Source: Anaerolineae bacterium
Lineage (GTDB): Bacteria > Chloroflexota > Anaerolineae > B4-G1 > SLSP01
NCBI GenBank assembly: GCA_035415725.1
Contig: DAOOGN010000004.1
Location: 7,353-71,352, forward strand
Direction of reading: 5' to 3'
Length of the DNA: 64,000 nucleotides
Position numbers and translations under genes: made by a program. The notes under the pieces were generated by a model. That model had not been told where the DNA came from. It worked only from the letters and a program-made list of their open reading frames with translations, and did no database searches. Positions 39,339 through 43,071 of this stretch are shown piece by piece (position 1 is the stretch's first letter; each line of letters starts with the position of its first letter).

Positions 39339-40514
39339 ATGAATAATCCACACAACGTTCCGGCCTCGCTCCGCACGCTGCGCCTCCTGGAAGCGCTGGC
39401 CGCCGAACCGGGGGGAATGACCTCCGGCCAGTTGGCCGCCGCCCTGGACATTCCACACAGCGCGCTCCACGCCCTGCTCAACACGCTCAAAAAGACGGGG
39501 TACATCGTCCAGGCGGGGAGCCGGCAACCCTATCACGTCGGACCACGCACCCAGGCCCTCGGCCAGCCCCGTCTACCGGGCACTAACGCCCTCATGATGG
39601 CTTTCTACGAGGAGACGGCGCGCCGACAGCCCCAAGAGACGCTCGCGCTGGCCAGGCTCGATGACGCCGATATGGTCATTCTGGCCGAAGCGCCATCTGC
39701 ACAGGCCGTCCGTTGTGCTATCCCCGTCGGGCAGCGGAGCGCCGCCATCGCCCATCCGGCCGGCTGGGTGCTCCTGGCCGGTCTCGTCGAAACCGCTCTG
39801 GAACGCGCGCTGGCGTCATATCCAGAGAACGCGCGCGAGCCGGTCGAACGCGCGCGTCGTCAGACGTCGGCTTGCTGCATCGACGAAGACGTTGTAACGC
39901 TGGCCGTGCCGGTCTGCCCCGATGGTCAACGTCCCGAAGCCGCCCTGCTGACGAGCATCCCGGCTTTCCGTTGGGATGCAGCCGACGAAGAAGCGTTGCT
40001 AGGCGACTTGCGCGAAATGGCCGCCCGCCTCTCCTATCGCCTTGGCGCGCTCACCTACACCCCCTACGGCGCGCCTGCATTGCCTCCTCATGGAACGAGC
40101 GTTGCTATGCCTGAAGCAGAACTGCGCGCGTTTTTGGATGGCCCCTGGGCCGCGCGGCTGGCCTGCATCCGGCCCGATGGATCGCCCCATGTCGTGCCCG
40201 TCTGGTACGAGTGGCGCGACGCCACCTTTTTCATTGCCGCCTGGCCCGGCTCCCTGTGGGCGGACTTTGTCACGCAGAACCCGGCGGTGGCCCTCAGCAT
40301 TGATGAACCGTGGCCGCCCATGCGTCGCATCCTGGTGCGGGGGCAGGCACAGCCGCTCCTATCGGCCAGCATCCCCGGCGGCATTGCTGGCCTGTGTACG
40401 CGGATTCATGCCCGCTATCTCGGCGCGCCGCCGTCCGGTGACGTTCCTCCGGCGGCGTGGAAAGCGTTCCGCATCCCCCCGGCGAAGATGATTGCCCAGC
40501 GGGAACAGCTATGA
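39339..40514 (+). CDS. IclR-family regulator fused to a C-terminal PPOX-class (FMN/F420-binding split barrel) domain
   Basis: N-terminal HTH (SLRTLRLLEAL...SALHALLNTLKKTGY), IclR effector domain, then FLDGPWAARLACIRPDGSPHVVPVWY...NPAVALSID...ILVRG from about aa 257. Confidence 0.8.
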   Translation: MNNPHNVPASLRTLRLLEALAAEPGGMTSGQLAAALDIPHSALHALLNTLKKTGYIVQAGSRQPYHVGPRTQALGQPRLPGTNALMMAFYEETARRQPQETLALARLDDADMVILAEAPSAQAVRCAIPVGQRSAAIAHPAGWVLLAGLVETALERALASYPENAREPVERARRQTSACCIDEDVVTLAVPVCPDGQRPEAALLTSIPAFRWDAADEEALLGDLREMAARLSYRLGALTYTPYGAPALPPHGTSVAMPEAELRAFLDGPWAARLACIRPDGSPHVVPVWYEWRDATFFIAAWPGSLWADFVTQNPAVALSIDEPWPPMRRILVRGQAQPLLSASIPGGIAGLCTRIHARYLGAPPSGDVPPAAWKAFRIPPAKMIAQREQL

Positions 40515-41269
40515 ACGTTGCCCTGCGCGGCGTCGCCAAGACCTTCAACGGCGTCCAGACGCCTCTTGTGGCGCTCAATCCCATCACCCTGGATGTGGCG
40601 ACGGGTGAATTCGTCTGTATTATCGGCCCCAGTGGTTGCGGCAAATCGACGTTGCTGCGGCTTATCGCCGACCAGCTTTCGCCGACGGCAGGCGCTATCC
40701 GCCTGGACGACGCCCCGCCTGCGGTGGCACGTCAGGCCCAACAGATCGCGTGGATGGCGCAAAATCCGGCCCTGCTTCCCTGGCAGACGGTCCTGGATAA
40801 CGTGCGACTGCCGCAGCGCATCAACCGGCGCGGGCGACATCCGGCACTCGATCCCACAGACTTGCTCCGTGTGGTCAGACTGGCGGACTTCGCCCGGGCT
40901 TATCCCGGCGCTCTCTCCGGGGGAATGCAACAGCGGGTCGCCCTGGCCCGCACTCTGGCGACGGGCGCCCCGCTCTGGCTGATGGACGAACCGTTCGCCG
41001 CACTGGATGAGCTGACCCGCGAGACGTTGGCCGACGAAGTCCTGCGTCTCTGGCACACCTTCCGTCCGACGGTGCTTTGGGTCACACACAACATCGCCGA
41101 AGCCGCGCGCCTGGCCGACCGCGTCGTCGTGATGAGTGCGCGGCCCGGCTGTATCCGGGATACGGTCGCCATCACGCCGCCCCGTCCCCGCGACGAAACC
41201 GCGCCGGAAACCGTTGCCATCATCCGCCGTCTGCGAGCTGTGCTGCGCAAGAGCATGACCACGGCTTGA
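40511..41269 (+). CDS. SsuB/TauB-type ABC transporter ATP-binding protein
   Basis: GPSGCGKST, LLPWQTVLDNV, LSGGMQQR, MDEPFAALD; ATGA overlap with the regulator. Confidence 0.92.
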   Translation: MNVALRGVAKTFNGVQTPLVALNPITLDVATGEFVCIIGPSGCGKSTLLRLIADQLSPTAGAIRLDDAPPAVARQAQQIAWMAQNPALLPWQTVLDNVRLPQRINRRGRHPALDPTDLLRVVRLADFARAYPGALSGGMQQRVALARTLATGAPLWLMDEPFAALDELTRETLADEVLRLWHTFRPTVLWVTHNIAEAARLADRVVVMSARPGCIRDTVAITPPRPRDETAPETVAIIRRLRAVLRKSMTTA

Positions 41270-41290
41270 AGGATTAAGAGGAACGCAGAA

Positions 41291-42082
41291 GTGCATGAGA
41301 GGTCTGCCCCCACACTGAAACGGGATGTGATTTCCGCCGCCGGAATTATCGGACTGACACTGCTGGCCTGGGAGATCGCGGTGCGGTTCAATCACACGCC
41401 GATCTATATCCTGCCGCCGCCGTCGGCGATTGCCGGCAAGTTCTGGCGGAACGCGGGTTACCTCCTCGCCGCCGCGGGGGTCACGCTAGGCGAAGCCCTC
41501 GGTGGATTACTGCTCGGCCTGACCGTCGGCATCGTGGTCGCGGCGCTCATCACCTTCTGGACGAATCTGGAACGCGGTATGCTGGCGCTGTCCATCCTGG
41601 TCAAGGCCACGCCGATAGTCGCCATTGCCCCGCTGCTCACCCTTTGGTTGGGTTTCGGCCCACTGCCCAAGGTGATCGTCACCGCACTGCTCACCTTCTT
41701 TCCGGTGTTGATCAACGTTCACAGCGGCCTGCATGCCGTGGATGAGGCGGCGCTGGCGCTGTTCCACTCACTGAATGCCGGGCGGTGGGAACTGTTCCGT
41801 TACGCTCGCTGGCCCTCAACGCTGCCGTACCTGTTTGCCGCCCTCAAAGTCGTTGCACCGCTCGCCGTGACCGGTGCCGTCGTCGCCGAGTGGGCCGGCG
41901 CGTCGGCGGGCCTGGGCCGCGCGATGTGGCTGGCCTACGCCGACTTAAACTTGCCGCTGCTCTTCGCCGCCGTCTTTTGCTCGGCGGTGATGGGCGTGGG
42001 GTTATACGTTTTGGTGGTGGTGCTGGAAAAACGGGTGATCTTTTGGCGTTGGAACGTTCAAACGAGAGGGGGAGAGATATGA
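41291..42082 (+). CDS. SsuC/TauC-type ABC transporter permease
   Basis: YILPPPSAI, TPIVAIAPLL, FFPVLIN, GAVVAEW..AS.GLG. Confidence 0.92.
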   Translation: MHERSAPTLKRDVISAAGIIGLTLLAWEIAVRFNHTPIYILPPPSAIAGKFWRNAGYLLAAAGVTLGEALGGLLLGLTVGIVVAALITFWTNLERGMLALSILVKATPIVAIAPLLTLWLGFGPLPKVIVTALLTFFPVLINVHSGLHAVDEAALALFHSLNAGRWELFRYARWPSTLPYLFAALKVVAPLAVTGAVVAEWAGASAGLGRAMWLAYADLNLPLLFAAVFCSAVMGVGLYVLVVVLEKRVIFWRWNVQTRGGEI

Positions 42083-43071
42083 AACGCATTTTCGTTGTGT
42101 GGATGTTGATGGTGTTGTTAGCGACGGGGTGTGTGCCTAAATCTACGCCGGAAGCGAAGAGCCTGGTGTTTATGGCCGGTTACGTTCCCCAGGCGAGCCT
42201 GCCGTTTGTGGGCGTCTACGTGGCGCAGGAAAAGGGATTTTTCGCCGCAGAAGCGCTGACCGTGGACATTCGCCATACCGCCGGCAAGGGTGAACACCTG
42301 CAACTGCTTGTCGCCGGCGCGGTGGACGTCACCACGCAGGATGCTGCCGTGCTGCTCAAGCGTCGGGCGGATCCCGGTCTGCCGCTCGTTTCCATTGCCC
42401 TCATCGGGCAGCGTGGACAGCAGGCCTACGTGGCGCTGAAGGAGAGCGGGATGCAGACACTGCAAGACTGGGCCGGGCACAAAATCGGCTTCAAGGGGAC
42501 GCCGCCGCCCGATTTGCCGGCGTTGCTGGACGTGGCCGGGTTAGACGAGCATACCGTTGAGATGGTCAACGTCGGCTTTGATCCGCGCGTGCTGACCGAA
42601 GGGTTGGTCGACGTGTATCCGGTTTACAATTCCAACGAACCGTATCTGCTCCGAAGCTGGGGCTACGAGTTAGTGCAATGGGAGGCCGCCGATTACGGCA
42701 TTCCCACGCTAGGGCTGGCCTACGTGACCACGCCGGACATCATCGCGCGCGACCCGGAGCGCCTCGAGCGCTTCCTGCGTGCTGCACTGCGCGGCATCGC
42801 CTACGCCGAAGACCACGTGGACGAAGCCATAGAAATCGTGCTTCACTACACCGGTCCGGAGACCGATCCCGCCCACATGCGCTTTATGTTGGAGACCGAG
42901 TTAGCCGACGCGCACAGCGCTCTCACGGCTGAATTTGGCATCGGTTGGCAGACTGAAGAACAATGGCAGGCGCTCATGGACTCACTGCTGAAGTATGGTG
43001 CGCTCGCCGGGCCGGTGGAAGTCAAGGAGGCGTTCACGAATCAGTTTCTGGAGGCAGTAAAAAAGCAATAA
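42079..43071 (+). CDS. NMT1/THI5-family substrate-binding lipoprotein (vitamin or flavin precursor candidate)
   Basis: Lipobox LATGC, GYVPQASLPFVGVYVAQEKGFF, YNSNEP, QTEEQWQ; ATGA overlap with the permease. Confidence 0.85.
   Translation: MKRIFVVWMLMVLLATGCVPKSTPEAKSLVFMAGYVPQASLPFVGVYVAQEKGFFAAEALTVDIRHTAGKGEHLQLLVAGAVDVTTQDAAVLLKRRADPGLPLVSIALIGQRGQQAYVALKESGMQTLQDWAGHKIGFKGTPPPDLPALLDVAGLDEHTVEMVNVGFDPRVLTEGLVDVYPVYNSNEPYLLRSWGYELVQWEAADYGIPTLGLAYVTTPDIIARDPERLERFLRAALRGIAYAEDHVDEAIEIVLHYTGPETDPAHMRFMLETELADAHSALTAEFGIGWQTEEQWQALMDSLLKYGALAGPVEVKEAFTNQFLEAVKKQ

Follow-up and report, generated by a model that had tools for sequence, protein, structure and literature searches.

What does a transcriptional regulator sense when a split-barrel domain of the PPOX class is fused to its C-terminus, and what does the importer encoded behind it bring into the cell? 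These questions are raised by a four-gene operon in contig DAOOGN010000004.1 of assembly GCA_035415725.1, from an Anaerolineae bacterium of the Chloroflexota, of which we analysed a stretch of 64,000 nucleotides (positions 7,353 to 71,352 of the contig, referred to here as the window and numbered from its first letter). The operon encodes an IclR-type regulator, the ATPase and permease of an ATP-binding cassette (ABC) importer, and an NMT1/THI5-type substrate-binding lipoprotein. We consider it probable, from gene context and conserved sequence, that this module is a deazaflavin-responsive autorepressor controlling a salvage importer for Fo. A sequence-only reading of the same DNA had proposed that, through the fused barrel, the IclR repressor detects a flavin or deazaflavin and regulates its uptake, and this is supported by the conserved barrel, the operator predicted over the -10 box and the F420 gene context, the last of which would place the ligand on the deazaflavin side. 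The features of the operon are as follows.

39270..39297, + strand: predicted promoter; -35 TTGACA at 39270-39275, 16-nt spacer, -10 TATACT at 39292-39297; 11 of 12 consensus matches, the best site in 38900-43500
39287..39300, no strand assigned: predicted operator O1, the palindrome TCCGTTATACTGGA, from a phylogenetic footprint; overlaps the -10 box
39307..39320, no strand assigned: predicted operator O2, a degenerate second site TCCATTCAAACGGA, 20 bp downstream of O1; 11.3 bits by position weight matrix (PWM)
39339..40514, + strand: tri-domain regulator, 391 amino acids (aa); helix-turn-helix (HTH) 39360-39539, IclR effector-type domain 39582-40040, linker, PPOX split barrel 40095-40511
40511..41269, + strand: ABC ATPase; start overlaps the regulator stop (ATGA 40511-40514); ABC_tran 107.6 bits
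41291..42082, + strand: ABC permease, BPD_transp_1, COG0600 type; Pfam 89.1 bits
42079..43071, + strand: NMT1/THI5-type substrate-binding lipoprotein; start overlaps the permease stop (ATGA 42079-42082); NMT1 132.6 bits

The regulator fusion, its predicted operator and its operon

The single 391-aa reading frame had been described as an IclR HTH and effector domain joined to a C-terminal PPOX domain, and this was borne out by three Pfam domains above their cut-offs, namely HTH_IclR (PF09339; residues 12-58, 46 bits against 22), IclR_C (PF01614; residues 95-232, 30.4 bits against 24) and PNPOx_N (residues 259-340, 38.9 bits, above the curated cut-off). The AlphaFold2 model of the regulator has a mean pLDDT (predicted local distance difference test) of 89.8, with the barrel strands 253-390 at about 90. 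In a Foldseek search with this model, the top 47 matches were IclR proteins with E-values down to 6.5e-16, covering only about 250 of the 391 residues, the barrel part matched the PPOX protein 2HQ9 (template modelling score TMt 0.72), and none of the solved structures had the IclR plus split-barrel architecture. The window regulator thus shares with the IclR family (E. coli IclR, TtgV, BlcR, PcaR, PobR) the N-terminal winged HTH followed by the GAF-like IclR_C domain, whereas, unlike the solved IclR structures, it adds a highly conserved split barrel of 140 residues, and, unlike known IclR proteins, many members of its family have a degenerate IclR_C domain.

The fusion is, to judge from its homologues, an old and conserved protein. 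Among 5.8 billion proteins searched there were more than 120 full-length homologue clusters with 40-81% identity and the same three Pfam domains, and in a species scan with one genome per species, 268 loci encode the fusion, of which the best 80 (L001-L080) were retained for locus comparisons; counts given per 81 loci include the window. The possibility raised beforehand that homologues would be split at the internal Met (40107), making the fusion a one-off stop loss, is excluded by these full-length clusters and by the 268 genomes, and this Met is not conserved. Separate genes, or a fusion confined to this genome, were likewise rejected, as every informative homologue is fused and the short matches cover the barrel or C-terminal part only, at least one of them (P0245) looking like a fragment because it can be aligned to the fusion's linker region. 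Across 114 aligned members, measured as the mean majority-residue frequency, the barrel is the best conserved domain (0.69; at least 90% in 33 of 107 columns), followed by the HTH (0.64) and the linker (0.63), while IclR_C is the lowest (0.49), contains deletions and in many homologues is missed by Pfam. The carriers are nearly all metagenome-assembled genomes (MAGs) of Anaerolineae-type Chloroflexota, with a few Acidimicrobiia; the isolate Levilinea saccharolytica KIBI-1 (L067) also has the module. In the regulator tree the window groups with a Thermoflexus-like clade (L001-L007). Copies from a MAG labelled Candidatus Sulfomarinibacteraceae (Acidobacteriota; L028) and from Acidimicrobiia (L031, L037 and L077) are nested inside a Chloroflexota clade of this tree, which suggests horizontal transfer or mis-binned contigs.

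Regarding the control region, the regulator promoter is, by consensus scan, a strong one of the sigma-70-like type. The upstream regions of eight close relatives cannot be aligned save for one block, consisting of TTGACA, a spacer and ATATCCGCTATACTGGACATATATCCA, and the palindrome GTCCAnTATAnTGGAC within the footprint is conserved across loci over the -10 box, often with a second copy 20 bp away. The related loci and the window, about 1 Mb in all, contain 33 exact copies of the pattern TCCNNTATANNGGA, each of them just upstream of the regulator gene; the single copy in the window is O1. A PWM site lies upstream of the regulator in 70 of the 81 loci, and about 35 of the 81 have two sites exactly 20 bp apart. 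The window taken by itself gives this operator no significance (one match where 0.88 would be expected with up to one mismatch allowed), so that its significance comes from conservation across loci and not from the window count. A predicted operator centred on the -10 box argues for repression, and tandem sites two helical turns apart would fit a dimer of dimers, the usual binding mode of IclR proteins, whose palindromic operators also lie near the promoter; we propose the same arrangement for the window regulator, in which the predicted operator indicates autorepression. The most distant regulators (L085, L087, L089, L094 and L095) have no PWM match, and only a TCCG-type half site is found near the -10 box in L085 and L087. 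Three of these (L089, L094 and L095) belong to a shorter regulator subtype of 364-377 aa in which much of IclR_C is deleted, and which is paired with cofE and has no palindrome match; this subtype may use a different DNA site.

Downstream of the regulator, the gene order ATPase, permease and NMT1 lipoprotein and the two ATGA overlaps stand as they had been read from the sequence. The best NCBIfam match of the ATPase is SaoA, with the SsuB/TauB type next, and the binding protein begins with a lipoprotein signal (MKRIFVVWMLMVLLATGC, lipobox LATGC) and has an AlphaFold2 model with a pLDDT of 92.9. A search for the same fusion with the same neighbours in other genomes had been proposed, and it succeeded: in a tblastn comparison of the four window proteins with the 80 loci, the order regulator, ATPase, permease, binding protein was found in every locus long enough, the transporter genes following wherever the contig extends, with the exception of one clade (Roseilinea, some Thermoflexales, Anaerolinea) in which the ATPase gene is absent and the permease and binding protein follow the regulator. 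The permease is kept in all loci that extend far enough, and conservation within the module is highest for the binding protein, whose 67 full-length orthologues from the related loci all show 57-86% identity, while clustering of all open reading frames (ORFs) in the 80 loci disclosed no further gene common to them. With both the fusion and this gene order found again in every related locus of sufficient length, the module lies far beyond chance and is, on this comparative evidence, inherited as a unit. The cargo need not be the same for every transporter linked to the regulator, as the NMT1 protein beside it in one distant lineage has only 26% identity to that of the window. An Rfam scan of the whole window at gathering thresholds gave zero matches, and therefore no flavin mononucleotide (FMN) or thiamin pyrophosphate (TPP) riboswitch is present, in agreement with the earlier remark that no riboswitch is visible.

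F420 genes beside the regulator family

The strongest evidence for the ligand class comes from the neighbours of the regulator family. In 11 loci, cofC follows the binding protein directly (TIGR03552, 146-151 bits against a cut-off of 105), and in L038 it overlaps the stop codon. In 10 loci, an fbiE-like nitroreductase gene, with the FbiB C-terminal domain as its best match, lies upstream of the module, directly adjacent in L030, L033, L041 and L053. FbiE is the stand-alone dehydro-F420-0 reductase of Chloroflexi (PMC8498797). The clade flanked by cofC and fbiE is that of the Promineifilaceae/Ardenticatenaceae. More distant family members, followed after their confirmation as IclR-PPOX fusions, had the following arrangements.

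L085: regulator, then CofG (453 bits against 213), CofH (481 against 374), CofC and an F420-type LLM (luciferase-like oxidoreductase); no importer; first gene starts 3 nt past the stop
L093: regulator, then CofH; no importer
P0408 contig: regulator, then CofH; no importer
L094 and L095: regulator, then CofE (279.5 bits in L095, cut-off 181); no importer
L089: regulator, then ATPase and permease, then CofE

The L093 regulator is 41% identical to that of the window and, standing before cofH with no importer, has the same O1/O2-type operator. One sensor family thus stands before synthesis genes or before an importer, as is the case with cofactor riboswitches, and this suggests the pathway's own product as the signal. 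The likeness is to the FMN, TPP and cobalamin riboswitch regulons, where one sensor type precedes biosynthesis or importer operons for the same cofactor; the difference is that those sensors are RNA, whereas the sensor of the window family would be a protein. Homology alone cannot decide the ligand; gene context points to a deazaflavin as the ligand class.

Two of these contigs deserve a remark of their own. In L085, from a groundwater metagenome, positions 5633-11483 form a compact operon that is a candidate self-regulated Fo/F420 biosynthesis unit. In L093 (7202-8387), cofH was called as two ORFs of 316 and 86 aa that jointly cover the CofH model, a frameshift or an assembly error.

Most likely, then, the four genes of the window would be one autoregulated operon supplying a deazaflavin to the cell, and this deazaflavin would most likely be Fo (7,8-didemethyl-8-hydroxy-5-deazariboflavin), the headgroup precursor of F420. 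The regulator would sit as a dimer of dimers on O1 and O2, blocking RNA polymerase and repressing its own operon, and its barrel would bind Fo or F420 as a sufficiency signal, with the ligand-bound form as the repressing one, because regulators of one type govern synthesis as well as uptake, and only a sufficiency signal suits both. Related split barrels such as MSMEG_3380 are obligate dimers that hold the deazaflavin at the dimer interface (PMC3034190), so that ligand-dependent pairing of barrels could drive the dimer-of-dimers state. The lipoprotein would capture Fo released by methanogens, actinobacteria or cyanobacteria, the ABC system would import it, and CofC, CofD, CofE and FbiE would add the tail to the imported Fo to give F420. 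Fo is the more likely cargo than F420 itself, given that cofC and cofE are co-transcribed with the importer and that the transporter family includes a riboflavin importer (PMC4418817).

The barrel, the binding protein and competing ligands

The best NCBIfam match of the barrel is TIGR03618, the Rv1155-type F420-dependent PPOX class, followed by four other F420-class PPOX families, and none of its NCBIfam matches is FMN-class. Its phmmer matches include 3F7E (1.3e-9), 2HQ9 and 1RFE, the first of which we take to be the F420H2-dependent reductase MSMEG_3380 on the basis of its residue numbering (PMC3034190), whose R24, W35 and R80 correspond to R278, W289 and R334 of the window barrel. A phmmer search for barrel relatives among 1.84 billion representatives showed that the closest ones are almost all fusions of 360-450 aa, and that the ten closest stand-alone relatives all match TIGR03618 best (43-87 bits), two of the ten above its cut-off. 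The barrel residues invariant in members of both the importer type and the biosynthesis type are F265, L266, L274, P283, P287, W289, W292, W307, E323, P327, R329, R330, G335, R359 and Y360. The window barrel therefore has its fold and best sequence matches in common with the FDOR-B/TIGR03618 enzymes (MSMEG_3380, Rv1155), and also their phyletic range of Actinomycetota and Chloroflexota: reports of split-barrel F420 enzymes are confined to Actinobacteria and Chloroflexi (PMC8498797), and by the regulator tree these two phyla hold nearly all module copies. Unlike those enzymes, it is fused to a DNA-binding protein, and an enzymatic role is not implied.

The binding protein has as its nearest structures ThiY 3IX1 (2e-22; 2e-25 by Foldseek), the thiamin-bound 4NMY and Thi5 with pyridoxal phosphate (PLP), with TauA, SsuA and the pyrroloquinoline quinone binder PqqT further off. 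Its branch is, as far as these matches tell, one that binds heteroaromatic vitamin-like molecules, with an identity to ThiY of only 25-28% (TM-score 0.73-0.79). Against the model for SsuA/TauA sulfonate-binding proteins (TIGR01728) it scores 49 bits against a cut-off of 163.5. ThiY/ThiXYZ, which has in ThiY the closest solved structure, resembles the proposed role of the module in being an importer of a vitamin moiety; its operons carry TPP riboswitches, whereas the window operon has neither a riboswitch nor linked thiamin genes. A parallel by family is RibXY(Z) of Chloroflexus aurantiacus (Caur_0816-0817), an importer of a ribityl-isoalloxazine-type vitamin in the Chloroflexota, with the same ABC components as the window (COG0715/NMT1 plus COG0600), an ATPase sometimes encoded elsewhere, as in the ATPase-less clade of our module, and expression under a sensor of the cofactor (PMC4418817). 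The background given for RibXY in the sequence-only reading, an NMT1-family binding protein with an FMN riboswitch, agrees with that study, in which the system was validated in Chloroflexus (PMC4418817). In contrast to RibXY, which is under the FMN riboswitch, the window transporter has no riboswitch and is translationally coupled to a protein regulator, and gene context ties the window-type module to F420 and not to riboflavin.

Several observations weigh against Fo or F420 as the ligand and should be kept in mind. The adjacency of cofC and fbiE among L001-L080 is limited to one related clade; in the window's own clade the neighbouring ORFs include no F420 gene beside the module, and a wider Pfam tally, over about half of the remaining neighbour ORFs, found no F420 family beyond the fbiE type. 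The barrel falls under every F420-family cut-off, so that the hidden Markov model scan suggested by the sequence-only reading came out in part: HTH_IclR, IclR_C and PNPOx_N are all above their cut-offs, and TIGR03618 is the best barrel match but below its own (46-49 against 79.05 bits). In addition, the basic tail groove of MSMEG_3380 (H47, R51, Q52, K53, R55) is replaced in the window by A300, G304, S305, L306 and A308, so that recognition of the F420 tail is unsupported by this mapping; as a discriminator of Fo from F420 the groove was set aside, the MSMEG_3380 residues being kept only in part. Cofactor preference (F420, FMN, FAD, heme) is interspersed over the split-barrel tree (10.1101/2020.08.24.261826), and the nearest solved relatives of the binding protein bind the thiamin pyrimidine or thiamin and not a flavin.

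Three other explanations have to be weighed against the deazaflavin reading. It is unlikely, in our judgement, that this is a riboflavin/FMN system with a RibXY(Z) orthologue as transporter, a barrel that senses FMN or riboflavin, and a protein regulator in place of the Chloroflexus FMN riboswitch. CofH uses an intermediate of the riboflavin pathway, which can be counted for such a system, and PPOX barrels commonly bind FMN. The transporter is moreover of the RibXY family, which has ATPase-less versions in Chloroflexus as well (PMC4418817), and FbiE is FMN-dependent (PMC8498797). Nevertheless, no riboflavin biosynthesis or flavokinase gene turned up among the neighbours tallied, whereas five different F420 genes are linked in several lineages, and the F420-class character of every NCBIfam barrel match also speaks against riboflavin. 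An uptake system for the thiamin pyrimidines HMP (hydroxymethylpyrimidine) or FAMP (formylaminopyrimidine), for thiamin or for vitamin B6 is very improbable. The best PDB matches of the binding protein named above would favour it, and the PNPOx fold binds pyridoxine phosphate and PLP in its namesake enzymes, but the identity to ThiY is low, the neighbours tallied include no thi or pdx gene, and the F420 gene context would be left unexplained. Furthermore, a true ThiY-type homologue, found in Bacillus with 28% identity, stands behind tandem TPP riboswitches of a kind that the window lacks, and hence belongs to a subfamily other than that of the window binding protein.

The remaining explanation, which we hold to be quite unlikely, concerns the role of the barrel and not the class of the cargo: it would be an extra oligomerisation domain, an enzyme or a redox module and no sensor, with the effector in the IclR_C pocket and a substrate perhaps unrelated to the cofactor class of the barrel. 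The obligate dimers formed by split barrels in related enzymes such as MSMEG_3380 (PMC3034190) agree with this, as does the fact that IclR proteins normally take their effectors in IclR_C, ligand-bound IclR structures being among the Foldseek matches. It is at odds with IclR_C being the least conserved domain, with deletions and often undetected by Pfam, and with a barrel whose highly conserved columns include numerous Trp and Arg residues, as ligand pockets typically do; and the F420 gene context would still point to a deazaflavin-related signal.

Novelty, consequences and flanking sequence

A comprehensive F420 review of 2021 describes no bacterial regulator of F420 supply, no Fo/F420 importer and no salvage, only a putative exporter, and neither an IclR-PPOX fusion nor an Fo transporter nor a transcription factor responding to F420 came up in our further full-text literature searches. 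An IclR regulator, an ABC importer and a split barrel are each of a known kind, and their combination and the ligand proposed here appear to be undescribed. We are evenly balanced on the broader claim that this is the first protein transcription factor sensing a deazaflavin (Fo/F420) together with the first dedicated Fo importer, and that one sensor family governs, depending on the lineage, cofGH, cofC/cofE or Fo scavenging. If so, F420 research would have candidates for a regulator and a transporter as well as a defined operator, and the IclR family would acquire a new, modular domain for sensing cofactors. Anaerolineae-type Chloroflexota would be widely cross-fed with the F420 headgroup, for example by methanogens in digesters and sediments, and many Anaerolineae, which are abundant methanogen partners, would scavenge this headgroup instead of, or besides, making it, which would bear on cofactor cross-feeding and on why such organisms resist culture. 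A deazaflavin-responsive repressor/operator pair and an Fo importer would also be useful parts for F420-dependent biocatalysis in hosts without Fo synthase.

A plasmid origin of the module was considered and rejected, no near match having been found. In a search for RibY-type relatives, tblastn against plasmid records gave identities of 31% or less, and of the four loci taken, one is of the ThiY type behind TPP riboswitches and none has an FMN riboswitch. Two of the plasmid records, L082 (NZ_CP093325.1, 5.5 Mb) and L083 (NZ_AP026896.1, 4.9 Mb), are labelled plasmids and are evidently chromosomes; L082 is the one with tandem TPP riboswitches before a ThiY-type ABC operon. L081 (a Deinococcus actinosclerus plasmid, 188654-195295) has an NMT1-type ABC transporter flanked by a dihydropyrimidinase and a Zn hydrolase with a PucR regulator; this looks like a catabolic uptake system for pyrimidines or hydantoins.

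The window operon is bracketed by a direct repeat of about 280 nt (83-93% identity) at 38934-39211 and 43211-43460, with an internal GC-rich hairpin at 39069-39108, and the 45-nt left end of this repeat recurs as a partial copy at 44356-44400. The idea of a mobile cassette between these repeats was rejected, given that the repeat family occurs at many sites of the window and is not specific to the operon. Just 3' of the operon, an AT-richer stretch (43641-44376) carries two small ORFs of 103 and 134 aa on the - strand.

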